Shown here in pieces: positions 2,950 to 55,595 of a DNA stretch of 56,382 bases. The stretch's first letter is position 1, and each line of letters starts with the position of its first letter. The notes under the pieces are model-generated. The model was given only the letters and a program-made list of their open reading frames with translations. It had not been told where the DNA came from and did not search any database. The translations under genes and the position numbers were made by a program. The stretch is from a virus (Duplodnaviria > Caudoviricetes), in the IMG/VR virus record IMGVR_UViG_3300037762_000131, positions 1-56,382 of that record. The stretch is one strand, 5' to 3'.

Positions 2950-3260
2950 CCCGTGACTCCGGTTTGACTCCCATCGGCGTGCGAGCCCACCGGACTCCAC
3001 GGGACTGCAGCGGCACGCAACCCCCCAGAACCCTGGAACAGTGCGGGTTTTGTGCGTGTCCACGCAACTGCACGCAACCCCACCGGACGGGGGGCGGATG
3101 GTTGACCGCCATGTGAACCCCTCGGCCCATCACGACTCGAACCCCGGCGCCGACACCCGAGAAATGGCTTGCCCACGCTGTTTCATGGGATTCATGAGAT
3201 TCATGGGAGTCGTGGATCTCATGGATTCCATGGCCCGTGACTCCCATCTGACTCCCATCC
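2942..3260. other. Putative attP (arm-type pairs near 2953-2972 and 3237-3256 flanking 9-10-bp periodic accessory-factor repeats)
   Basis: Largely non-coding gap downstream of the integrase. TGACTCC direct-repeat pairs at both ends; TTCATGGGA-like 9-bp tandem repeats at 3181-3232. Core site not identified. Confidence 0.7.
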
Positions 3261-3819: not shown

Positions 3820-5007
3820 TCATCCTGTGATCCTTTTGGCGATCCGTTCGGCGGCGGCCCGATGCTGCCGGTCGGACACATGCCGATAGGTGCCCAACGT
3901 CGTGGACACATGCGCGTGCCCCAACCGCTCCGACACCACCTTGGCGTCCACACCCGCGTCCAACGCCATCGTCGCGTACCCGTGCCGCAACGCATGCACA
4001 TCAATCCGAGGGAGCCCCAAGGCTTTTGCGTGGCGGCGCAACGCCCGCCACAACCGGTCCGGATGCATCACACTGCCGTCTTCCCAGCACACCACCAGAT
4101 CCAGGTCGTGGTAGGCGGGGCCGCACGCCAGCTTTTCTTGCGACAAACGGGCGTGATGGGTCCTGAGAACCTCCACAGTCCGCGCGTCGAGTTCGACGGT
4201 CCGTTCCCCCGCCCGCGTCTTCGCGCCGTCCACCCACACCGGCCTGTTGTCAACCTCGGTCAACTCCCACCGCACCCTGAGCGCACCAGACTCAAGGTCG
4301 ACATCCTCCCAGTGCAGGCCGCACGCCTCCCCCCGCCGCAAACCCGTCGTCGCCAGCAGCCGCCACACCGGCCACAGCCGATCCCGCTTGGCTTCGAGCC
4401 AGGCGAGCCACCGGCCGGTCTGCTCCGGCGTCCACACCCGCTCGCTGTTCCTCGATGTCGCCGCCCTCTCCGACGGCGGGTGCGCCAACCCCGCCACATT
4501 CCGCGACACATACCCGCGCTCCACCGCCACCGCCAACGCCCGGTGCAACGCCACATGTGCAGACCGGACCGTCTTCGGCGACAGCGGTCCCACGTCCCGC
4601 AGCTTGCCCTTCGCTGTCCTGCGCTGCCACCCGCCGCGCTCGAGCAGCCGATACACCGCGTCGACCTGCTCCGCCGACAGCTTCTCCAACTTGATGCCGC
4701 CGAGATGCGGGATCAGATACCACTCGCACATGTTCCGACGATGCGCCGTGGTCGTCGCCTTCCCCCCAACCCCCACATACCAGGCGCGGAGATAGCCGGC
4801 GACCGTCTGCCGCTGCTCACGAACCAGAGGGATGTCGCCGGCCGCGATGCGGCCGCGCAACCCGTCCTCCCACACCCGCGCCTCACGTTTGGTGGCGAAC
4901 CCGCGTTTCGTGGACTTCCGCCGGCGGCCGTCCGGATGAGGTGGCAGCTCGTAGTTGACCCGCCACCGCTCCCGCCCCCTCCCGTCGACATACTTATGCA
5001 CACTCAC
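3820..5007 (-). CDS. int: Tyrosine integrase with N-terminal arm-binding domain
   Basis: GLRRGEACGL (R), AKT (K), HALRH, LGH and TYRH (Y) catalytic residues; N-terminal WRVNY..KRGFATKREA. GTG start overlaps the upstream TGA. Confidence 0.96.
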   Translation of the reverse strand: MSVHKYVDGRGRERWRVNYELPPHPDGRRRKSTKRGFATKREARVWEDGLRGRIAAGDIPLVREQRQTVAGYLRAWYVGVGGKATTTAHRRNMCEWYLIPHLGGIKLEKLSAEQVDAVYRLLERGGWQRRTAKGKLRDVGPLSPKTVRSAHVALHRALAVAVERGYVSRNVAGLAHPPSERAATSRNSERVWTPEQTGRWLAWLEAKRDRLWPVWRLLATTGLRRGEACGLHWEDVDLESGALRVRWELTEVDNRPVWVDGAKTRAGERTVELDARTVEVLRTHHARLSQEKLACGPAYHDLDLVVCWEDGSVMHPDRLWRALRRHAKALGLPRIDVHALRHGYATMALDAGVDAKVVSERLGHAHVSTTLGTYRHVSDRQHRAAAERIAKRITG

Positions 5008-5345
5008 AACGACCGTGCTTCTACCCAGCGGGGCATCTTGCGAGGGTGGAACACGACCTCCCAGTGCGGGCCGCAGACTTCGCCGTGGTTGATCTGCCAG
5101 ACCCGTTGCAGGTGCATGACGGGCATCCCGAAGTTCATGCAGACAGCGAGGACGCGCCACCCTTCACCGTGTGAGCCGACGAAGCCTACGGTCGGGTCGC
5201 AGTAGGCGTGGCCTTCGCCGCCCTCGCACGACTCGGTGGTGTGGACGTCGTGGTCGAGGAGGATCTTCACGGCATGCGCGATGCCGAGATCCAGCGGGTC
5301 GCCCGGGCAGATCGCCTTCGCTATCTCCTCGGCGGTCTGTGTCAT
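5004..5345 (-). CDS. Hypothetical protein (DxGI..TTESCEG motif)
   Basis: AGGA RBS; coupled overlaps on both sides. Confidence 0.7.
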   Translation of the reverse strand: MTQTAEEIAKAICPGDPLDLGIAHAVKILLDHDVHTTESCEGGEGHAYCDPTVGFVGSHGEGWRVLAVCMNFGMPVMHLQRVWQINHGEVCGPHWEVVFHPRKMPRWVEARSL

Positions 5346-5572
5346 CTGCTGTTCCTTTTGGTGTCGAACGCCTGGACGTCCAACGCGTCGCACGCGGCGA
5401 TCAGCGCGTCCTCCGCCCGATCCAACAACACCTCATCCACCCGCTCCAGGCGGACCGACGGGGTGTCAGCTATCCGCCCCGCCAACGCCTTCACCCTGCG
5501 CGCGTGCTCGATCCGGTCCTGGTAGCGGTGGTACGCCTGGTCGCCCGCAGCCCCACGCCCCCCGGCCATCAA
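5342..5572 (-). CDS. Hypothetical protein
   Basis: ATGA-coupled in the leftward operon. Confidence 0.55.
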   Translation of the reverse strand: MMAGGRGAAGDQAYHRYQDRIEHARRVKALAGRIADTPSVRLERVDEVLLDRAEDALIAACDALDVQAFDTKRNSR

Positions 5573-5766
5573 GATTCACCATCCATCGGCGAATTCGCGT
5601 TGTCCCATCCCAAGTGGCGCTCGACTTCGCCCAGCACCGCCTCCGGTCCGATCCACCACTCGGCATCCGCGTTCGGGTACTCACGGATTGCGGCTGCGAC
5701 CTTCCCCCGCAACTCATGGTGGAAGTGATCGCCGTCGTGTGCTTCGCATCGCAGCGGGTTCACCAT
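5569..5766 (-). CDS. Hypothetical protein
   Basis: Strong AAGGAGG RBS upstream; coupled to the next ORF. Confidence 0.6.
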   Translation of the reverse strand: MVNPLRCEAHDGDHFHHELRGKVAAAIREYPNADAEWWIGPEAVLGEVERHLGWDNANSPMDGES

Positions 5767-6023
5767 GACCCCTCCTTACTGTCCGTCGAATCCTTACAGC
5801 CCTGTGTCATCCGTTTGCTTTCACCCAGTGGAAGACGGCAGCCTTACGCACCTGCCGTACGCACCAGGGGTCACCATGCACGCCACGCCAGCACACCTCG
5901 CCTTGGCGGCCGCCGCCGTGGTTCTCCGGTGGGCCGCTGAGAACGGCCGCCTCCGCGACGAGTTGGCGTGGCACCGTGACGCCTTGCATTCGGCGCGGTC
6001 GGCGTTGGACGGCGCGTCGGCGG

Positions 6024-6365
6024 TCATCGCCTGTGGACGTAGCTTCGATAGTGAGCGACCAGAGCGTCCCGCTGAATCTGCGTGAGTTCCTTGTCGCGGC
6101 GCACCACTTCCTCGAAGCTCGGCCAACCACGGGGAGGTAGTTCGCCGTCGTTCCTGTCGAGCTGCTGCTCGATCGCGGTGACTGACGTGCCGAGTGCTTG
6201 TGCGAGTCGCGCCAAGTTCTCCAGGGTGATCGTGTTGTGGATGCCCCGTTCGATGCGGGACAGGGTGGATGTGTCGACGTTGGCGCGACGTGCAAGTTCG
6301 GTCATGGAGTAGCCGGCGTCCTCGCGTAGCCCGCGTAGGACGTCGCCCACACTCCGTTTCTCCAT
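6024..6365 (-). CDS. XRE-family HTH immunity repressor (probable)
   Basis: LRGLREDAGYSMTELARRANVDTSTLSRIERG; co-oriented with int; leaderless start just after a TTGCGC-N18-TATCCT promoter. Confidence 0.85.
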   Translation of the reverse strand: MEKRSVGDVLRGLREDAGYSMTELARRANVDTSTLSRIERGIHNTITLENLARLAQALGTSVTAIEQQLDRNDGELPPRGWPSFEEVVRRDKELTQIQRDALVAHYRSYVHRR

Positions 6366-6372
6366 GAGCGCA

Positions 6373-6402
6373 AGGATACGCATGTCCCTTGCTCATGCGC
6401 AA
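6373..6402 (-). promoter_or_regulatory. Leaderless promoter of the repressor, overlapping a GCGCAAC operator-like motif
   Basis: TTGCGC (6402-6397), 18-nt spacer, TATCCT (6378-6373), then ATG 7 nt later. Confidence 0.6.
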
Positions 6403-6411
6403 CCCCCCTTG

Positions 6412-7461
6412 TTACCGGTCGGTAGCGGCGGCGCCGTGGACAAAGCCGCAAGCAGGACATGCATGCGTGGCGGCTGATTCAGTCCCGGCCGCGGCAGGCG
6501 CTGTCTTGGCTCGTTCCTCACGCCTGCCGCGTTCCTGATCGACCACCTTTTGGACGCTGGCGGGGGTCCGGTTGCGCGTGGTGTCCAAGCCGAGGACTTC
6601 GTGGCCGAGTTCGTCCATCGTCTTGCCCTGCTCGAAGTAGCCCTCAATGATGTCAGCTTCCTGCTCGGGGGTGACTCTCGGTCGGCCCCCACGCGTCTTA
6701 GGTTTCCCATCGTGGGAAACTCCCGCGATGTCCCGGCCAACCGTCGAGGCGCTTACTTTGAGCGCCTCCGCGATCCGCTCAATCGTCCAGTCGCGCTCGC
6801 CATACAGGTACTCGGCGATCTCCTTACGCTCTTCCGGGGTGAATGGCTTCGCGCCGAGATTCGACCCGATCGCGTACGCGAACCGCTTGGCGTCGGCCTC
6901 ATCTCCTTGGCCGAGGGTGACCTTGGTGATCACCGGTTTGATCCCCAGCTCCTGCGCCACAGCCAGCCGCCGGTGGCCGACCAGGATCACTCCACGCTCA
7001 TCCGCGATTGCTGGCAATTCGGGCAGCCATCCGAACGAGCGCATCGACTCGCGCAACTCGGCCATGGTGTCCTTGCCCGTGTTGCGGCGGATGTTGTCCG
7101 AGAACCGTCCGGTCATCGGGTCGAACGGCGCGTGAAACCGCGCATATGGATCGTCGTACAGGTGCAGCAGCTTCTTGCCGGGATACCGGACCTTGTCGGC
7201 GTCGCGGGTTAAGCGGTAGCCACTGCCGTTCATCTCGACCTGCGAACCGAGCTCGGCGATCGCACGGTCGATCAGCCACGCCTCGGCCTCGGTGTTGCTG
7301 GCGCAGCCCTCCTGCGACCGGACACGCGCCAAGTCCCCCGTGTTCGGATGCTGATAGCTTGCCGCCAGGTCCGAGGCCGGCAAGGCCGCCGGAGCGGCCC
7401 TGCCAAGCTCGGTGGCGACGTGACGCACCGGACTCACAAGATCCAATGGGTAGTCGCCCAT
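6412..7461 (-). CDS. ParB/Srx-fold protein with HTH and C-terminal CPACG zinc knuckle
   Basis: NIRR..ELRESMRSFGW..AIADERGVILVGHRRL; WTIERIAEALKVSASTVGRD HTH. Confidence 0.82.
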   Translation of the reverse strand: MGDYPLDLVSPVRHVATELGRAAPAALPASDLAASYQHPNTGDLARVRSQEGCASNTEAEAWLIDRAIAELGSQVEMNGSGYRLTRDADKVRYPGKKLLHLYDDPYARFHAPFDPMTGRFSDNIRRNTGKDTMAELRESMRSFGWLPELPAIADERGVILVGHRRLAVAQELGIKPVITKVTLGQGDEADAKRFAYAIGSNLGAKPFTPEERKEIAEYLYGERDWTIERIAEALKVSASTVGRDIAGVSHDGKPKTRGGRPRVTPEQEADIIEGYFEQGKTMDELGHEVLGLDTTRNRTPASVQKVVDQERGRREERAKTAPAAAGTESAATHACPACGFVHGAAATDR

Positions 7462-7467
7462 AGCCGA

Positions 7468-8478
7468 TCAGCCCTTTCGTGCCAGCTCAGCGAGCACGTC
7501 CTCCGTGGTGGAGTTGCGCTGCATCCGCAGGACCTCGATCAGCACAACGACGGCCTCGGTGAGCGCCTCTGTGTGCGTCTCGTTGACCTTCGGGTCCGTC
7601 TCCAGCAGCTCCTGCTCGCGCTCGGCGAACTTCTTGATGAACCCGAGGCGCTGCCGCAACTGCCGTGACACCGGAGGCTTGCCGCTGCCGGTCAGCTCCT
7701 TTTCGCGGATCCTGTCACCGAGCTCCATCCGCAGCTCCGACACAGCATCGATCGCGCCCTGGTCGGAGCCGGTGTCGCGCATCTCCTTCGCGGTGTCCTT
7801 GATCTCGCTGGCGTTCAATCCGGCGTCCGCCGCGAGCGACGCCAGCTCCTTGTAGGGCACGTCGTTCAGCGCGACTACGTCCTTCGCGCCCAACGCGCGC
7901 AGCGACGGGCCACCGACGGCGCCGTTGGGGTTAAGCCCGACACGGCGCATCTTCGCCGCCGCGTCGATCTCCCGTTTGACCTGCGTGACGCTGCTTGACT
8001 TCAACCCGATCGCCCGGCCGATCTGCTCGGTCTTCCAACCGAGCTCGACCAACCGCGTCGCGACCTCGCGGGTCTCGCGGCCCGTGAGCGGCACGCCGTT
8101 CGACGCGTTGAGGGTCGCCGCGAGCGCGTGTAGCTCGTTCTGCCGCTTGCGGTTCGCGCCACCCCAGGCGACGTCCAGGACGATCGCGGGGCAGAACTTC
8201 TCCTTGCGGAGCAGCCTGGCGCCGACGCGGGTGTTGCCGTCCACGATCCAGTCGTCGGAGGTCACGACGATCGGCGGGAACGGGGTCTCGCCCATCTGGA
8301 CGGCGTACCGTTGGACGGAGTCCTTCGGCGCGTAGTGCTTGGGTTCACGGACCTGGATGCGCCGGTCGGGACTGAGCCGGGTGAGGTCGAAGTCAGCGAC
8401 CTCGCTCCAGTCGAAACCGAGGCGTTCAATCTCGGTCACGGCGCTGGGTTTGGTAGGGGTTGCAGACGGTACAGCCAT
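7468..8478 (-). CDS. ParB-like N-terminal domain protein with HTH
   Basis: QVR..VQRYAVQM..FPPIVV..IVDGNTRV; WKTEQIGRAIGLKSSSVTQ HTH; GAAAGGAGG RBS. Confidence 0.78.
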   Translation of the reverse strand: MAVPSATPTKPSAVTEIERLGFDWSEVADFDLTRLSPDRRIQVREPKHYAPKDSVQRYAVQMGETPFPPIVVTSDDWIVDGNTRVGARLLRKEKFCPAIVLDVAWGGANRKRQNELHALAATLNASNGVPLTGRETREVATRLVELGWKTEQIGRAIGLKSSSVTQVKREIDAAAKMRRVGLNPNGAVGGPSLRALGAKDVVALNDVPYKELASLAADAGLNASEIKDTAKEMRDTGSDQGAIDAVSELRMELGDRIREKELTGSGKPPVSRQLRQRLGFIKKFAEREQELLETDPKVNETHTEALTEAVVVLIEVLRMQRNSTTEDVLAELARKG

Positions 8479-8536
8479 CTGTAGCCCCTCCTTTCTTTGG
8501 TGGTTGGCAACCCTTGTGGCCGCCACTGCCTGGCAC

Positions 8537-8600
8537 ACGGTAGCGGACGCAATGGATCTGCGCAACTCCCTTGCGCAACCGTGCGCCACGGATATACGCT
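8537..8600. promoter_or_regulatory. Divergent promoter pair with TGCGCAAC repeats (genetic switch)
   Basis: Rightward TTGCGC(8571)-N18-TACGCT(8595)-N6-ATG; leftward TTGCGC(8565)-N17-TACCGT(8542); TGCGCAAC at 8559 and 8572. Confidence 0.6.
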
Positions 8601-8606
8601 GGACCC

Positions 8607-8876
8607 ATGCCAGCCAGATACCGCATCCTCGAAGCCGCCACCCGCCAGTTCATACGAGAGCGCACCCGCGAACCTGACGGCACGAACAAAGGCGACGGGC
8701 TCGCCAAGTTCGCCGCGCTCATCGGCGTCTCCGTCGGGCAACTGTCCCGCATCCTCAACGGCCGCGTCGACCTCACCTGGGACATGCGCAGCCGCATCGC
8801 CGACGGCCTCGGCGTCCCACCAGCAGCCATCGGCGAAGAAATCCGCGACATCGACACACAGGCGGTGAACTCCTGA
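8607..8876 (+). CDS. Cro-like XRE HTH protein
   Basis: LAKFAALIGVSVGQLSRILNG..RIADGLGV; first gene of the rightward early operon. Confidence 0.82.
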   Translation: MPARYRILEAATRQFIRERTREPDGTNKGDGLAKFAALIGVSVGQLSRILNGRVDLTWDMRSRIADGLGVPPAAIGEEIRDIDTQAVNS

Positions 8877-9142
8877 TGCGCGTCCGTCACAAGCCGACGA
8901 CGGTCGACGCGGTCCGCTGGGACGGCTCAGCGACCGCCCTTCAAGAGCTGATCGCGCTCGGCCTGACCGCGTACCGGTACGAACCCACCGTCGGCGACTC
9001 GACCGTCACGTTGGTGATCTCCACCGGCGAGGGCGACCGGCCTGCGCTGCCCGGCGACTACGTCGTCAAGGGCACGGCCGGGGAGTTCTACCCGATCCGC
9101 CCGGACGTCTATGAGGCGTGCTACGAGGTGGTGAGTTCATGA
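8876..9142 (+). CDS. Small conserved phage protein (KPxxVxAVRW...PGDYVVKG..GEFYP family)
   Basis: Motif typical of a widespread phage family; function unknown. Confidence 0.8.
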   Translation: MRVRHKPTTVDAVRWDGSATALQELIALGLTAYRYEPTVGDSTVTLVISTGEGDRPALPGDYVVKGTAGEFYPIRPDVYEACYEVVSS

Positions 9143-9465
9143 GCGCAGTCCTGACGCTTGTTCACAAGCCGACCGTCGTCAAAGCCGTCCGCTGGGACGA
9201 CACCGCCGAGGCCCGCGCCGCGCTTGCGTCTATCGGGTTCCAGTTCGGCCTCCACGGCTACCTCGGTGACGGTCCCGGCCCGCGGACGCTGACCATCCGC
9301 ACCCCCGAAGGCGACCGGGCCGCCCGACCCGGCGAGTCGACCGTCATCCAAGGGACGCGGGGTCAGTGGTACTGCATCGGCCACGACGTCGAAGCCGACT
9401 GCTACGACCCCGTGCTGGTCGAGATCGGGCCGATCACGGTCACCGGCACCGGCGGTGCGTCGTGA
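9139..9465 (+). CDS. Paralogue of 8876-9142
   Basis: HKPTVVKAVRWD...EGDRAARPG..GQWY..CYD aligns with its neighbour. Confidence 0.75.
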   Translation: MSAVLTLVHKPTVVKAVRWDDTAEARAALASIGFQFGLHGYLGDGPGPRTLTIRTPEGDRAARPGESTVIQGTRGQWYCIGHDVEADCYDPVLVEIGPITVTGTGGAS

Positions 9466-9749
9466 GGCGCGCTGTCGCCAACGAGCTGGCGGTCGAGCGC
9501 CTCGTAGCCGCCATCGACCGGCTCACCGATCTGCTCACCGCCGAAGTCGAGCATCGCACCCCGATGCTTGACGCCGGGATGCTCACCGTCGCCGAAACCG
9601 CCGCCATTTTGCGGTGGTCGGAGGACACCGTGTACCGCCGCTGCCATATCGACCTGCCCTGCATCCGCCACGGCAACTCCTACCGCATCCCCCGCCACGC
9701 CCTCAACCAATGGCTCCTCGAACAAGCGCTTAAGGCCGGTGCCGCATGA
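9462..9749 (+). CDS. xis: Excisionase-like HTH protein
   Basis: MLTVAETAAILRWSEDTVYR..LPCIRHGNSYRIPRHALNQWL. Confidence 0.75.
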   Translation: MRRAVANELAVERLVAAIDRLTDLLTAEVEHRTPMLDAGMLTVAETAAILRWSEDTVYRRCHIDLPCIRHGNSYRIPRHALNQWLLEQALKAGAA

Positions 9750-10964: not shown

Positions 10965-11149
10965 GCTGGTGGCAGTGGGCGCTCGTCTGGCTCGCCGCAT
11001 CCGCCATCGTCGCACTCATAGTCGGCCGGGTGCTCGGGCGCCTGTCCGAGATGGATGAACGCCGTTGGCATGCGATTCAAGAGCGTGACAAGGCGCGTGA
11101 TGAGTGGTTGCGCCACATCCGCGAGAAGGCTGGCGACCGCGATGGGTGA
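10961..11149 (+). CDS. Small membrane-anchored protein
   Basis: N-terminal WWQWALVWLAASAIVALIVG helix. Confidence 0.55.
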   Translation: MSWWQWALVWLAASAIVALIVGRVLGRLSEMDERRWHAIQERDKARDEWLRHIREKAGDRDG

Positions 11150-11426
11150 CCTCAACTCTGAGCTCACCGAACTGTTGCGCGACATGCGCCACCAAGCCGG
11201 ACTCACCCAAAGCGAACTCAGCCAACGACTTGGGTGGGCGTCCCACTACAAGGGCGCGGGCTACGGCTGCCCGCAGGTCAGCAAGTACGAGCACGGCGTC
11301 AAGGTCCCCAAGTGGGACGTGCTCGGTCGGTGGGCGGCGGCGTGCGGGTTCCACGCCGAACTCGTCATCACGCGCCCCGGCGCCGGCCGCTGGGTCGTCC
11401 CCCTTAACGACGGACCGAACCCATGA
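11142..11426 (+). CDS. XRE-family HTH protein, paralogue 1
   Basis: LRDMRHQAGLTQSELSQRLG..VSKYEHG..P. Confidence 0.85.
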   Translation: MGDLNSELTELLRDMRHQAGLTQSELSQRLGWASHYKGAGYGCPQVSKYEHGVKVPKWDVLGRWAAACGFHAELVITRPGAGRWVVPLNDGPNP

Positions 11427-11569
11427 CCGCGAAACGCATGCGCCGCCGCGCCGCCCGCCGCGACGTCGCCGCACATGACTGCGACGAACACTGCGCCGTC
11501 GTCGGCCCCCCATACGCCCACTGGTGGCGTGTCTGCCTGTCCTGCGGCAGAACCTGGAAACGCACATGA
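11423..11569 (+). CDS. Small Cys/His-rich protein (48 aa)
   Basis: ATGA overlaps at both ends; HDCDEHC..CLSCG. Confidence 0.5.
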   Translation: MTAKRMRRRAARRDVAAHDCDEHCAVVGPPYAHWWRVCLSCGRTWKRT

Positions 11570-11838
11570 CCGACCTCGACGCGCAGCTCACCGAACTCCT
11601 CCGCGACATGCGCCACCAAGCCGGACTCACCGGGGCAGACCTCGCCAACCGAATCGGTTGGCACGGGAAGCAACGCCGCACCGTTGTCAGCAACTACGAA
11701 TGCGGCCGATACATCCCCGGACTCGAGCTGGTCGGCCGGTGGGCCGCCGCGTGCGGGCTCCACGCCGAACTCGTCATCACACCACGAGGAACCGGCAGCC
11801 CGTGGGTCGTGCCGCTCAACGACGGACCACAACCATGA
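11566..11838 (+). CDS. XRE-family HTH protein, paralogue 2
   Basis: LRDMRHQAGLTGADLANRIG..VSNYECG..P. Confidence 0.85.
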   Translation: MTDLDAQLTELLRDMRHQAGLTGADLANRIGWHGKQRRTVVSNYECGRYIPGLELVGRWAAACGLHAELVITPRGTGSPWVVPLNDGPQP

Positions 11839-16077: not shown

Positions 16078-16189
16078 TGTTGCGCCTACCCGTTGCGCGC
16101 CGCCGCACGGTTGCGGGTGGGTTCGCGGTGTGGCGCCGTTTCGGTGTTGCGCGAGACCGTTGCGCGCAACGCCACCGGCACGGTAGGGT
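16078..16189 (+). promoter_or_regulatory. Promoter with a cluster of GTTGCGC operator-like sites
   Basis: Several GTTGCG(C) copies, including palindromic GTTGCGCGCAAC; TTGCGC(16160)-N18-TAGGGT(16184)-N6-ATG(16196). Confidence 0.6.
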
Positions 16190-16195
16190 CATGCA

Positions 16196-16396
16196 ATGCC
16201 TGACACTGACACACCGCCACAGATACGAGCGGCGAACAAGGCGCGGGTCCGCGTCCTCGCCGACGCCGCCGCGAGAGACGACGACAAACTCCGCCGCGCC
16301 GTCAACATCGTCGTCGCCGCCATCGCCGCAGAACGACTCACGTTCTCAGATTTGAGACGCGAACTCGAAGCGCGCGCCGAAAAGGCCAGCGCGTGA
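16196..16396 (+). CDS. Hypothetical protein
   Basis: Leaderless start after the promoter; coupled to the MTase. Confidence 0.65.
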   Translation: MPDTDTPPQIRAANKARVRVLADAAARDDDKLRRAVNIVVAAIAAERLTFSDLRRELEARAEKASA

Positions 16397-18080: not shown

Positions 18081-18280
18081 TGGCGCGCAAGTCTCGGTTG
18101 CCGCTGCTCGGTGACATCCCAGTCACCCTCCCGCCACGCACGACCGCCGACGGCACCACAGTCACTTACATCCGCGGTTGCGAGTCGTGTGTTGTCTGCA
18201 CCTTGGACTGCTACGTCCACGTCGACGGCGTCCCACTGCACTCCGATCGCTGCCACACCTACTACCAAAGGGCCGGGTGA
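18080..18280 (+). CDS. Small Cys/His protein
   Basis: TGATG-coupled; CESC..C..H..C. Confidence 0.5.
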   Translation: MARKSRLPLLGDIPVTLPPRTTADGTTVTYIRGCESCVVCTLDCYVHVDGVPLHSDRCHTYYQRAG

Positions 18281-18284
18281 ATCG

Positions 18285-18878
18285 ATGGTATGGGTGAAAC
18301 TCGACGACGGATTTCCAGAGCACCCAAAAATGGCGACCGCCGGTCCGCTCGGATTGGCCATGCAAGTCAGCGCGCTCTGCTACTGCAACCGCAACCTCAC
18401 TGACGGCTTCATCCCACACGCCATGGCCAAGAAGCTCCTCGACCTCGACGACATCCGCGGCGTCGCCTGGAAAGGCGTCGTCAAACGACTAGTGGACGTC
18501 GGCGCGTGGCGAGAAGTGACCGGTGGTTGGCAGATCCACGATTACGCGGAGTATCAGCCGACGCGTGCTCAGGTCGAGGACGAGCGGAAGGCCGCCCGCG
18601 ACCGGATGCAGGCTGTTCGCGCGAACAAATCACGAACTTCAACCGAACGTTCGCCCGAACTTCGCCGAAGTTCGCCTTACCCCGTTCCCGTACCCGACGT
18701 TCCTACGGAACGTACGCGCGCGCACGCACGCGACCCAACCCCCAAAACCCAACCACCCGTCTTCAACGGCGCCGTCGACGTCGCCCCACTCGCCGAGGCG
18801 TCCGACCCGGAAACCACCGCCGCACAGCTCGCGGCGATCCGCCGGCAACTCACCCCCACCGAACAGGACACCCCATGA
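18285..18878 (+). CDS. Phage replication initiation-type protein
   Basis: MVWVKLDDGFPEHPK..LTDGFIP..WQIHDYAEYQP..ARDRM is typical of actinophage/prophage replication proteins. Confidence 0.7.
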   Translation: MVWVKLDDGFPEHPKMATAGPLGLAMQVSALCYCNRNLTDGFIPHAMAKKLLDLDDIRGVAWKGVVKRLVDVGAWREVTGGWQIHDYAEYQPTRAQVEDERKAARDRMQAVRANKSRTSTERSPELRRSSPYPVPVPDVPTERTRAHARDPTPKTQPPVFNGAVDVAPLAEASDPETTAAQLAAIRRQLTPTEQDTP

Positions 18879-28219: not shown

Positions 28220-30115
28220 ATGCGGATCCTCTGGCATTCCGTGCACCCAGCGGTCGGGTCCGGATACGGGCAGCAGACCGCCACGTTCACCCCCCGCATC
28301 AAATCGCTGGGGCATGATCTCGCGATCTCCGCGTACTACGGGATCCAGGGGTTCAAGATGTCCTGGCAGGGGATCACCTGCTACCCCGCCTACGCCAAGT
28401 CGTACGGCAGCGACGTGATCGTCCCCCACGCGATCGACCATTTCGGCGGCGGCCCGGGCCATTCGTTCCGCGACGTCGCCGACAAAGGCGTGATCATCAC
28501 GCTCGGTGACGTGTGGACGTTCGAGCAGCCGCTGCTCCGCGAGATGAACGTCGCGTCGTGGGTGCCCGTCGACCATGAGGAACTCCCGCCGTCGGTGGCG
28601 GGTTGGTTCGAACGGACTGGTGCAGCGCCGATCGCGATGTCCCGCTTCGGCGAGAAGCTGTTGCAAGACGCGGGGATGGACCCGCTGTACGTCCCCCACG
28701 GGATCGACACGAACATCTTTCGGCCGGGCGACCAGGCCGAAGCCCGCGCCCGCGCTGGCCTCCCCGAAGACGCGTTCGTGATCGCGATGGTGTCCGCGAA
28801 CGTCGGCAAGGACGGCGCCCGCAAGGCGTTCTACGAGCAGATCACCGCGTTCGGCGAGCTCCGCAAGAAACACTCCGACGCCGTCCTCGTGCTCCACACC
28901 GACGTCACTTCGCCGCACGGGGTCGACATCCGCCATCTGCTCTCCGACTTCCCCGACGGCTCCTATCACTTCACCGACCAGTACGCGTACAAGGTGGGGT
29001 TGCCGCCGTTGACGGTCGCGGACGTCTACCAATCCGCCGATGTGCTGACGAACACGTCGTGGGGTGAGGGGTTCGGCATTCCGATCGTGGAGGCGCAGGC
29101 GTGCGGGACGCCGGTGGTGGTGACGGACACGACGGCGATGCCCGAGCTGTGCGGCGCTGGCTGGAAGGTGCCGGGTGAGGTGTTGTGGCACGAGTCGCAG
29201 CACGCGTGGGCCAGGCGGCCGTTCATCGCGTCGATCGCCGAAGCCTACGAACAAGCCTACGAATCGGCGCGGGATGAGGGGATGCGCGCGAGGGCGTGGG
29301 CGTTCGCGCAGGACTATGACGCCGATCTCGTTCTCAACGAGTTCTGGAAGCCCGCGCTCGAACGGCTGGAAGCTGCGTTGGAGCTCCGCCGGAGCGAGGC
29401 ACCCGAGTCGTTCAAGCCGACGGTGCGTGAGTCCGACGGGCTGCTGTGGCTCGACCGCGGTCCCGCCTATGGCGATGCGGTTGGTTGGGCTGACCACGAA
29501 CCGGAGCTGAAACCGATCGTCGAAGGGTTGTTGCCTAAGGGCGGTGTGCTGCTCGACGTCGGCGCGCACGTCGGTCACTGGACCCTCCGTCTCGCATCAA
29601 AGGCGTCCAAGGTCATCGCGGTCGAGGCCAACCCTGAGACGGCGTCCACCTTGCGGCGGAACCTCGCGATCAACGACATCACCAATGTCAGGGTGTGGGA
29701 AATCGCGGCCTGGGACAGCAACACATCCATGCGGCTGGAAGACCCCAACAAACAGACCGAAGGCGGATCCACCCGCACCATGCCCGACGATGATGGCGTT
29801 GCTGTCGGCCTCCGCCTCGACGAAGCCATCGTCGACGACCTACGAGACCGTCTCGACCTGGTGAAGCTCGACGTCGAAGGCGCGGATCTTCACGCTCTCC
29901 GCGGGATGTCCGGGCTGCTCGAGAAGCACCGGCCGGTGCTGTTCATCGAGTGCCACGATTACTGCGGCTACTACAAGCGCGAAGACCTCGAAGAACTCCT
30001 CACCGACCTCGGCTACGGCTTCGAGGTCGCCTACACGTATCCGTCGCATTGGCGGCCCGACGGGATCGCCGACGAACCCGCCGACGCCGACTACCTCATC
30101 TGCCGACCCAAATGA
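28220..30115 (+). CDS. GT4 glycosyltransferase fused to FkbM-family methyltransferase
   Basis: SGYG, VPHGIDT..F, RK, EGFGIPIVEAQACGTPVV (GT-B); LDVGAHVG, VEAN, VKLDVEGAD..LRG, PVLFIE (FkbM). Confidence 0.92.
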   Translation: MRILWHSVHPAVGSGYGQQTATFTPRIKSLGHDLAISAYYGIQGFKMSWQGITCYPAYAKSYGSDVIVPHAIDHFGGGPGHSFRDVADKGVIITLGDVWTFEQPLLREMNVASWVPVDHEELPPSVAGWFERTGAAPIAMSRFGEKLLQDAGMDPLYVPHGIDTNIFRPGDQAEARARAGLPEDAFVIAMVSANVGKDGARKAFYEQITAFGELRKKHSDAVLVLHTDVTSPHGVDIRHLLSDFPDGSYHFTDQYAYKVGLPPLTVADVYQSADVLTNTSWGEGFGIPIVEAQACGTPVVVTDTTAMPELCGAGWKVPGEVLWHESQHAWARRPFIASIAEAYEQAYESARDEGMRARAWAFAQDYDADLVLNEFWKPALERLEAALELRRSEAPESFKPTVRESDGLLWLDRGPAYGDAVGWADHEPELKPIVEGLLPKGGVLLDVGAHVGHWTLRLASKASKVIAVEANPETASTLRRNLAINDITNVRVWEIAAWDSNTSMRLEDPNKQTEGGSTRTMPDDDGVAVGLRLDEAIVDDLRDRLDLVKLDVEGADLHALRGMSGLLEKHRPVLFIECHDYCGYYKREDLEELLTDLGYGFEVAYTYPSHWRPDGIADEPADADYLICRPK

Positions 30116-54591: not shown

Positions 54592-55149
54592 GTGGAAGTG
54601 GATGACAACGACGACACCACCGTCGGCAAGACCATTCGGATCCCGTTCCCCGACCCGACCGAGCGGACACTCGAGCAGTCCCGCCGCGAGATCGCCCAAC
54701 TCAAAGAACTGCTCGAGGCCGACCTCGAAGCGATCCGAGCGCAGGGCGACATGCGTTACGGGCTCGCCCGCGAGCTGCTCGACACCCGCCTCGGCGACCA
54801 CGCGCATCTGACGACGGAGCGGTTCGAGTCGATCCGCCGGGAAACCATGCTGGCGTTGTCCGCGGCGCAGGCCGCGGTCGACAAGGCCGAGCAGTCGACG
54901 ACGAAGACGATCGACGCGATCCAGGTGAGCATCGCGAAGCAGTTGGAGGCGCTCAGCGTTCAGGTCGGGGCGGAGGTCAAGGCGTTGGAGGAGCAGATCA
55001 TCGCGGTGAAGGAACGCCAGGACCGCAGCGAGGGGAAGGGCGCGGGGATCGCGACGTCGTGGGGTGTCATCGTGGCTGCGGTCGGCGCGGTCGGTGTGTT
55101 GATCTCGATCGTGGTGGTCGTGACGAACCTCCTCACGAACGCCGGCTAG
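54592..55149 (+). CDS. Coiled-coil protein with C-terminal TM helix (lysis-accessory-like)
   Basis: Long heptad region followed by EGKGAG and a hydrophobic helix. Confidence 0.7.
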   Translation: MEVDDNDDTTVGKTIRIPFPDPTERTLEQSRREIAQLKELLEADLEAIRAQGDMRYGLARELLDTRLGDHAHLTTERFESIRRETMLALSAAQAAVDKAEQSTTKTIDAIQVSIAKQLEALSVQVGAEVKALEEQIIAVKERQDRSEGKGAGIATSWGVIVAAVGAVGVLISIVVVVTNLLTNAG

Positions 55150-55496
55150 CCGACTTCGTCCGCGATGGCTGCGCCGAACGTCTCCAACGAAGCGTTCATG
55201 ACGACGTTGAACTCGTCGCGGCGGGTGCTATCAAGCGGCCCGAGGTAGTCGGCGTTCAGTTCCATGACGTCCTCGACGATGTCCTTGTCGCCGCCGATGA
55301 GCACCGTCACGTCAAGCCTGCGCTTGAGCAGGCCGCGCAGCAGGTCGCGCCACCCGATCAGCACCGTGTGTCGCACGAACGGGTCCGTGATCGGGTGGCG
55401 CCACGCCACCGACCGGCCGTCGATGGTCGACGTCACGTGATACCGGTCACCGGTCTCTTGGTGGTCATAGGTTGATTCGATCGACTGTCGCTTCAC
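55146..55496 (-). CDS. Hypothetical cargo protein
   Basis: Follows repeat copy C; converges on the late operon. Confidence 0.65.
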   Translation of the reverse strand: MKRQSIESTYDHQETGDRYHVTSTIDGRSVAWRHPITDPFVRHTVLIGWRDLLRGLLKRRLDVTVLIGGDKDIVEDVMELNADYLGPLDSTRRDEFNVVMNASLETFGAAIADEVG

Positions 55497-55514: not shown

Positions 55515-55584
55515 CCGTGACTCCGGTTGACTCCCATCGGCGTGCGAGCCCACGGCACTGCAGCGGACTGCAGCGGCACGCAAC
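55515..55584. repeat. att-arm-like repeat, copy C
   Basis: CCGTGACTCCGGTTGACTCCCATCGGCGTGCGAGCCCAC...ACTGCAGCGGCACGCAAC closely matches copies A and B. Confidence 0.88.
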
Positions 55585-55595
55585 CATGACCGCCA

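Follow-up and report, generated by a model that had tools for sequence, protein, structure and literature searches.

The 56,382-base genome of the virus IMGVR_UViG_3300037762_000131, analysed over its whole length and referred to here as the window, carries two adjacent minus-strand genes, named ParB1 and ParB2, that encode different ParB-type proteins and lie between an XRE repressor-like gene and a divergent Cro-like gene (Table 1). ParB2 and ParB1 are a fixed pair, with a gene of the ParB1 family directly following ParB2 in every usable related locus. By predicted fold and by their GxxR motif, both proteins are placed in the ParB/Srx (ParB-CTPase) fold superfamily, and profile comparison indicates that the two families are distant paralogues. 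The reading that we favour, although tentatively, is that of a two-subunit, nucleoside triphosphate (NTP)-switched DNA-binding module of the KorB/BisD kind, self-promoted, that would act on phage DNA early in infection or establishment.

ParB2 and ParB1 occur together

A search with the single ParB2 sequence returned no related loci, and a profile of the ParB2 alignment was needed to find them. This profile yielded 22 loci other than the window's own, of which nine were viral, one came from a metagenome-assembled genome (MAG) and 12 were metagenomic. Six were left out of the pairing count: L014, L019, L021, L022 and L023, which end before the downstream DNA, and L020, which lies on the same contig as L006. 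In the 16 usable loci, an open reading frame (ORF) of the ParB1 family directly follows ParB2 without exception (16/16), its likely start falling between -17 and +23 nt from the ParB2 stop codon and the two genes overlapping in 10 of the 16; the gap in the window is 6 nt. Indirect evidence comes from at least 29 ParB1-family matches that reside on contigs equal in size to one with a ParB2-family match. An earlier note on this DNA, made by a model from the letters alone, had proposed a two-component module with GHRR and DGNTR variants of the motif, and both points are borne out, ParB1 containing VGHRRL and ParB2 VDGNTRV.

A search of viral contigs with a ParB1 profile returned 21 loci, four of which were too distant to judge. 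An N-terminal winged helix is present in six of the 21, and in all six ParB2 lies just upstream. A further 11 clear ParB1 relatives (L029, L030 and L032-L040) have no winged helix and begin at about profile position 104-123, and no ParB2 was found in the 1.6-7 kb of upstream DNA examined for them. In L002, L003, L015 and L017, the ParB1 partner resembles the profile most closely at its winged helix and tail, with a poor match in the central part of the protein. Because the junctions between the two genes are tight and often overlapping, and because the winged helix appears only with the partner, the two proteins are expected to work together, and the winged helix would be involved in this cooperation. 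A prediction of the ParB1-ParB2 complex gave a score of 0.00 with controls not run and counts neither for nor against binding.

Several of the 11 loci without the winged helix have a different small gene upstream, of about 130-150 codons, which begins with a PPLPEKIEDW-like sequence (MPPPLPEKIEDW) and matches no Pfam family (L030:1200-1610, L032:6483-6935, L034:6181-6579, L040:6537-6932, L037:3999-4385 and L038:4072-4458). In L033 and L034 an integrase gene comes first, followed by an AlpA/Xis-like gene, the small gene and the ParB-like gene. The small gene and the ParB-like gene without a winged helix look like a second, parallel two-gene cassette.

The ParB2 gene most likely begins at ATG 8478 and not at the listed GTG 8589, because this ATG is preceded by GAAAGGAGG, because the start position is common to 24 of 24 aligned homologues and because a database entry of 100% identity (P0001) has 336 residues.

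The ParB2 family is large and almost wholly metagenomic, being found almost only in uncultured viruses of soil and sediment. An exhaustive profile search gave 1083 cluster representatives at an E-value of 0.001 and 197 at 1e-30, nearly all of 315-350 residues, and word-indexed searches gave 205 matches for ParB2 and 118 for ParB1. Neither protein had a tblastn match among the 50,697 isolate-phage records of INPHARED or a match among the 72,556 plasmid records of PLSDB. In 185,579 species genomes there was a single match, on a phage-like MAG contig from Actinomycetota on which an amidase gene is also present; the pair is therefore not located in bacterial defence islands.

Fold, motifs and domains of the two proteins

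Structure models (AlphaFold2, AF2) were built on alignments of 25 ParB2-family and 30 ParB1-family sequences and reached a predicted local distance difference test (pLDDT) of 86 for ParB2 and 80 for ParB1. In Foldseek searches against the PDB, Noc, ParB-CDP/CTPγS, KorB, Spo0J and pNOB8 ParB-N were top for both predicted models with a probability of 1.00, the best match being Noc 7ol9_B (5.5e-6) for ParB2 and ParB 6sdk_B (7.2e-5) for ParB1. The independent aligner VIA placed ParB2 with pNOB8 ParB-N (Z 9.9), PadC (9.5), KorB (8.5) and sulfiredoxin (7.8), and ParB1 with pNOB8 ParB-N (Z 6.8) and Spo0J (6.4). These matches agree with the combination of a ParB/Srx fold and a helix-turn-helix (HTH) that had been noticed in both proteins at the outset.

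Sequence families give weak support for the same assignment. Both proteins match PHROG families of ParB-like partition proteins at 1e-9 to 1e-10, and ParB1 reaches 25.6 bits (8.5e-6) with TIGR00180, below its cut-off of 58.45, with no match for ParB2. ParB2 itself belongs to no Pfam family, and ParB1 matches HTH families together with Sigma70_r4 at 27.4 bits (cut-off 24.1). A precomputed PF02195 match exists for one homologue (P0137). A PDB sequence search with the ParB2 profile gave no meaningful match (best E-value 0.18). In the ESM Atlas, the nearest clusters of ParB2 consist of viral "hypothetical proteins", and in some of them a minority of members carry ParB_N or KorB; the N-terminal part of ParB1 gave no usable feature match, only structural matches with TM below 0.5.

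The motifs are strongly kept within each family, with G[HN][RS]R in 30 of 30 aligned ParB1-family sequences and DG.TR in 25 of 25 ParB2-family sequences. A residue alignment of ParB1 with Myxococcus xanthus ParB places ELRESMRSFGWLPELPAI on Box I, GHRR on GERR, and SNLGAKPFTPEE on ENLQRADLNPIEE (ENLQR, with SNLGA in ParB1). As GHRR aligns on GERR, the His of ParB1 sits where PDB 7o0n bears the E93A substitution. In the profile alignment DGNTR stands opposite GHRR, and ParB2 has Asn at the position of the GERR Glu. The two families are homologous over the core by hhalign, with a probability of 91%, an E-value of 1e-6 and 17% identity over 145 columns, which is the basis for regarding them as distant paralogues.

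Outside the core, the proteins differ in their predicted domains (Table 1). ParB1 residues 3-102 gave middling but consistent VIA scores (Z 6.1-7.9), and nearly all of the 50 matches listed are winged-helix regulators. ParB2 has an HTH and a long C-terminal helical region at about residues 160-337 (roughly 160 residues); this tail, which was not folded alone, matched only designed or generic helical repeats. Four ParB1-like proteins (P0213, P0218, P0221 and P0225) carry a long C-terminal extension with LHPD(R/K), which presumably resembles the HPD signature of J-domains.

The pair within the repressor/cro region

On the minus strand the order of genes is ParB2, ParB1, the XRE repressor-like gene, two small ORFs and the integrase, and the Cro-like gene runs divergently from 8607. 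This is the layout given in the earlier note, with the repressor and Cro-like genes flanking two ParB-type genes, and the ORFs were confirmed as described. The same note had the pair inserted in the repressor/cro switch, which holds for this phage and not for the related loci, where the pair is found beside integrases or genes of replication and recombination.

Promoter-like sites of the form TTGCGC-N17-19-TAnnnT occur four times in the 56 kb, against 0.34 expected and with 0 of 100 shuffles reaching four, a statistic that is inflated because the pattern was written after the sites were seen. All four are at gene starts, namely those of the repressor, the ParB operon, cro and the gene at 16196. 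A strict sigma-70 scan of 5000-9200 gave no promoter. In three of the four sites an ATG lies six to seven bases past the second hexamer, and this spacing suggests that leaderless mRNAs, that of cro among them, may be made from these three promoter-like sites. The flanking motifs pointed out in the earlier note were upheld only in part, as the TTGCGC promoter-like sites are present at the repressor, the ParB operon and cro but bare GCGCAAC is hardly enriched (27 sites against 19 expected, with 27 reached in four of 100 shuffles).

As had been proposed, the pair is first behind a leftward promoter-like site (P_L, TTGCGC-N17-TACCGT), and it would form the first part of a leftward transcript that could extend as far as the repressor and integrase genes. 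A putative site just past the ParB1 stop codon (P_rep) may also drive the repressor by itself, so that a lysogen making the repressor would not have to make the pair as well. The repressor gene has two candidate starts, ATG 6383, behind AAGGGGGG, and ATG 6365; the former would serve transcripts from upstream, and the latter may serve a leaderless transcript from P_rep.

The direct-repeat arrangement GTTGCGC-N6-GTTGCGC is found exactly three times in the genome, at 8560-8579, 16079-16098 and 16146-16165. The first belongs to a run of three GTTGCGC-type heptamers at 13-bp spacing between the pair and cro, and the other two belong to a second motif-rich place ahead of the small gene at 16196 (Table 1). 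The repeats could be read by a sigma factor of the host, by the XRE proteins or by the pair.

Contexts of the pair in other phages

In the related loci the surroundings of the pair vary. A tyrosine integrase adjoins it upstream in L002, L003 and L013 and downstream in L017, and L017, with this downstream integrase and an XRE gene upstream, therefore resembles the window. In L005 and L007 the pair lies between genes for a DUF2800 nuclease and DNA polymerase A and genes for an SNF2 helicase and a dATP/dGTP pyrophosphohydrolase. A polymerase gene is found downstream in L010, RecT directly downstream in L008, Rad52 and a serine recombinase upstream in L006, and a Prim-Pol/AAA_25 gene directly upstream in L023. 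The L005 record (65.5 kb, rated 100% complete) gave no match to a tyrosine integrase, a resolvase or an AAA_31 ParA in single-family searches, and the record may be incomplete. Most of the related loci also have a promoter-like site just upstream of ParB2, mostly of the TTGACA type, with TTGCGC-N17-TAGCTT in L013. Given these varied contexts and upstream promoter-like sites of its own, the pair looks like a self-contained cassette, and by its neighbours it appears to settle in regions of early genes or lysogeny control in different phages.

Two side observations concern these loci. Just past the pair, L005 (11161-11754) and L007 (8891-9409) have the gene for a dATP/dGTP pyrophosphohydrolase (PF04447), a family linked with phages in whose DNA adenine is replaced. 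In addition, a G+C-rich hairpin (for example AACGCCGGG...CCCGGCGTT) follows the promoter-like site and precedes the ribosome-binding site of ParB2 in six of 15 related loci, and it may be an attenuator, a stabiliser of the mRNA 5' end or an operator. The hairpin was rejected as a general cis element of the pair, being present in only these six of 15 upstream regions and absent from the window.

Possible function of the pair

In the favoured reading, the two genes would be one mobile phage cassette with its own promoter, and the two diverged ParB NTP-switch paralogues, each with an HTH, would act jointly as a nucleotide-gated DNA-binding complex on phage DNA. Such a complex would regulate genes or organise DNA in the way of KorB, BisD, VirB or Noc and would not serve ParA-driven partition. 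On firing of P_L, the pair would be co-expressed with the repressor and the integrase, whose genes lie downstream of it, and the winged helix of ParB1 would be the likeliest contact or targeting element between the two proteins. Orphan ParB-fold proteins are reported to be common on prophages and to bind CTP, ATP or GTP (PMC12704722). A more detailed form of this model, which we consider unlikely as a whole, is a heterodimeric, asymmetric ParB clamp, which would be the first of its kind, that closes through two different NTP-binding domains, with the winged helix and the extra HTH picking the loading site and the ParB2 tail carrying the output; the clamp would slide from the switch over the genome and help to set the lysis-lysogeny or the early-to-late programme.

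Several observations weigh against a nucleotide-switched module of this kind. Pfam PF02195 (ParB_N) was matched by neither protein at an E-value of 0.01, nor in a six-frame search of the genome at 0.1, and neither PF08535 (KorB) nor PF17762 (HTH_ParB) appeared in the Pfam scans, so that the likeness to KorB is structural only. As the GERR Glu is replaced by His in ParB1 and by Asn in ParB2, hydrolysis or switching may differ or be absent. In PMC12704722, 17 of 28 purified ParB-fold proteins bound no NTP, and nucleotide specificity is described as not predictable from sequence or AlphaFold3. No conserved palindrome adjoins the pair and the analysis yielded no DNA target; the GTTGCGC repeats could be nothing more than -35 boxes or operators of the XRE proteins. 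No RNA run is listed for 5200-9200, and the one DNA run listed may be the source sample. Finally, no fused ParB2-ParB1 protein was found among longer proteins, which is weak evidence.

Partition or anchoring of a non-integrated phage genome (episomal, pseudolysogenic or an excised circle), either without ParA or with the ParA of the host chromosome, is the alternative that survives best, and it is improbable. It would account for the ParB fold and HTH of both proteins, and an invariant EIERLGF peptide in the N-terminal part of ParB2 lies about 25 residues ahead of the QVR element, which by our reading of the alignment is the position of the ParA-contact peptide in canonical ParBs. In addition, a pair-bearing phage is rated complete without a detectable integrase, and a CTP-independent ParB-like segrosome protein has been reported in Streptomyces (10.1101/2024.05.08.592561). 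The phage studied here does have an integrase, however, and, as the earlier note had observed, it lacks a ParA: PF13614, the only ParA family searched, was found neither in this phage nor in five other pair-bearing records, with the control positive in 14 of 14 genomes. The pattern quoted for ParA binding in PMC12704722, (L|F|I)G[K|R]G(L|F|I), matched 0 of 25 ParB2-family and 0 of 30 ParB1-family sequences. No palindrome of 12 bp or longer recurs in the window in the manner of parS, although degenerate or non-palindromic parS-like sites are not excluded by this result; there are also no relatives in the plasmid records, and partition does not need two different ParBs.

The next alternative, to which we give a somewhat lower probability, is that the pair serves host takeover or anti-defence, binding host DNA or proteins early and disturbing host ParB/parS, the nucleoid or silencing, or shielding phage DNA from restriction. 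The early-gene contexts of the pair fit such a role, and there are reported precedents: anti-defence or phage-host roles have been suggested for prophage ParB fusions (PMC12704722), a plasmid ParB-like protein is reported to reprogramme its host (PMC13370423), and VirB is reported to counteract H-NS silencing. The position next to an integrase in four loci is nevertheless at least equally consistent with action on the DNA of the element itself.

The earlier note itself had read the pair as a lysogen-expressed module, for example an NTP/CTP-sensing defence or a regulator of the lysis-lysogeny decision, and lysogen-expressed defence or superinfection exclusion that senses nucleotides or foreign DNA ranks just behind host takeover among the improbable readings. 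Defence proteins such as DndB make use of the ParB fold (PMC12704722), and the pair is part of the immunity region and has the orientation of the repressor and integrase genes. Neither defence nor specific expression in lysogens was supported, as the best match in PADLOC-DB 2.0 was the methyltransferase model MTase_II at 5.7e-6, over the ParB domain of ParB1 only, with all others at 0.007 or worse, and as the family is nearly absent from bacterial species genomes. Elsewhere the pair lies amid replication and recombination operons, including those of a phage without a detected integrase, neither protein has an effector domain (nuclease, membrane protein or toxin), and the repressor has a promoter-like site of its own.

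It is very unlikely that one or both proteins are DNA-processing enzymes, that is, ParB-like nucleases for recombination, replication or packaging, since the best structural matches are DNA-binding clamps, both proteins have HTH domains and no nuclease family was detected in Pfam and PHROG scans, despite RecT, Rad52 and exonuclease genes as neighbours and the DGxxR motif form of ParB2, which is typical of ParB-like nuclease or sulfiredoxin-type members. A role for the pair as the replication initiator was rejected, because the phage has its own phrog_2447 initiator.

Genome and other features

The genome has direct terminal repeats and a completeness rating of 100%, with an end overlap of about 127 bases by k-mer positions and a G+C content of about 66%. 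Judged from its gene content, this soil phage appears to be a temperate siphovirus, and its host group is probably Actinomycetota. In addition to the genes in Table 1, it encodes an exonuclease, HNH and Gp3-like proteins, two DNA methylases, a terminase, portal, protease, capsid and tape measure.

Table 1. Features of the window, with domains of ParB1 and leader hairpins of related loci. Positions are those of the window unless a locus is named.
Feature	Position	Strand	Details
XRE repressor-like gene	6024-6383	-	HTH_3 6.9e-15; phrog_3 transcriptional repressor 3.4e-12
ParB1	6412-7461	-	349 residues; GHRR
ParB1 winged helix	7156-7455		Residues 3-102; VIA matches
ParB1 NTP-binding domain, GHRR	6967-6978		Residues 162-165
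ParB1 HTH			About residues 205-245
ParB1 past the HTH			GGRP stretch; second helical or HTH region; C-terminal (H/C)xCPxCGxxH knuckle
ParB2	7468-8478	-	336 residues; DGNTR; DGNTR P-motif at 8227-8241; ORF listed as 7468-8589
Cro-like XRE HTH gene	8607-8876 (ORF from 8571)	+	HTH_31 7.7e-7; phrog_8
P_rep, promoter-like site directly past ParB1 stop	6373-6402	-	TTGCGC-N18-TATCCT; ATG 6365 seven bases on
P_L, leftward promoter-like site before ParB2	8537-8565	-	TTGCGC-N17-TACCGT; consensus match only
P_R, rightward promoter-like site	8571-8600	+	TTGCGC-N19-TACGCT; ATG 8607 six bases on
Fourth promoter-like site	16160-16189	+	TTGCGC-N18-TAGGGT; six bases before ATG 16196 of small gene
Three GTTGCGC-type heptamers, 13-bp spacing	8547-8579	-	Span both -35 boxes of the divergent promoter-like sites
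Second motif-rich place	16079-16189	+	Two GTTGCGC-N6-GTTGCGC pairs; 14-bp palindrome CGTTGCGCGCAACG; TTGCGC-N18-TAGGGT
Tyrosine integrase	3820-5160	-	Phage_integrase 1.3e-21; Arm-DNA-bind_4; last recognisable gene of leftward arm
Excisionase-like HTH gene	9366-9749		
Replication initiation protein	18111-18878		phrog_2447, 1.1e-37
ParB2-leader hairpins	L004:6913-6951; L005:6907-6961; L007:6912-6952; L008:6906-6940; L018:192-218; L021:3041-3079		

Other features of the genome were noted in passing. A 631-residue glycosyltransferase fused to an FkbM-type methyltransferase is encoded at 28220-30115, amid the virion structural genes. The early region contains tandem paralogous genes, comprising a small phrog_419-type pair (8876-9142 and 9118-9465, 42-45% identical) and two XRE HTH genes (11055-11426 and 11524-11838) that lie on a direct repeat of 410-424 bp with 73-80% identity. 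An element of about 70 bp is present in three near-exact copies (1409-1480, 2951-3020 and 55515-55585) with a partial fourth near 3238-3260, and shorter GACTCC-type repeats are found inside it. The three copies are each located upstream of a gene that points leftward and is close to a genome end: 722-1396 (HNH/HTH-like), 1485-2717 (DNA methylase region) and 55146-55496. The element could represent regulatory DNA common to these genes and is a candidate target of one of the phage's DNA-binding proteins.

Relation to known systems

Among the known systems closest to the proposed module is BisD of ICEclc from Pseudomonas putida, a ParB-like CTP clamp that is reported to load at bisS and to activate promoters with BisC (PMC12409273). 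As described there, BisD is likewise a ParB-like protein of a mobile element with no ParA role, an extra domain absent from ParB, a second element-encoded partner and a nucleotide switch that depends on GxxR. The likeness is one of description, with no sequence relation to BisD found and no test aimed at one made, and there are differences, since BisC is no ParB paralogue, BisD loads at bisS sites whereas the phage pair has no identified loading site, and the former belongs to an integrative and conjugative element of Proteobacteria whereas the latter belongs to a phage probably of Actinomycetota.

KorB-KorA of RK2 is the plasmid counterpart, in which a ParB-fold CTP clamp regulates transcription with a small partner, and RK2 also has IncC (ParA). 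The KorB structures 8qa8 and 8qa9 are among the Foldseek matches of the pair, at 1.1e-4 to 1.8e-3, and the VIA score with ParB2 is given above. KorA, however, is a small HTH repressor and not a second ParB, and the phage pair has no Pfam KorB domain. With ParB/Spo0J and Noc, the pair shares the fold and the order of elements (Box I, GxxR, Box III and HTH), but it is without ParA, a ParA-binding peptide or a recognised C-terminal dimerisation domain, it scores below the TIGR00180 and PF02195 thresholds, its GERR Glu is replaced, and it has two different subunits in place of a homodimer.

The orphan ParB-CTPase-fold proteins of prophages surveyed by Kaljevic et al. (PNAS 2025, PMC12704722) are also stand-alone genes of mobile elements with extra domains, among them a fusion of a Sigma70 domain to ParB that is reported to bind ATP; ParB1 likewise has a Sigma70_r4 match, at the score given above. 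The main text of that survey describes no fixed pair of different ParB-fold genes, and its supplementary datasets may list members of the present families. Full-text searches turned up no account of phages in which two different ParB-fold genes form a conserved pair. The ParB fold and orphan regulatory ParBs were known already, and what is new is the fixed heterotypic pair and the winged helix that is linked to the partner.

ParB-type CTP switches were long seen as partition proteins only, until KorB, BisD, VirB and Noc showed that they also serve gene regulation or DNA organisation. To our knowledge, all characterised switches of this type are homodimers. The family described here, with its 197 clusters at the stricter threshold, is a naturally occurring case in which to test whether a ParB clamp may have a heterotypic N-gate, and it bears on what such a clamp does for a phage equipped with a repressor, Cro, integrase and replication initiator of its own. 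Should the pair act on the switch, lysis-lysogeny decisions would have an input of a new kind, a nucleotide-gated layer over the classical repressor/Cro switch; if it does not, the pair would still be an unassigned and widespread early phage function.

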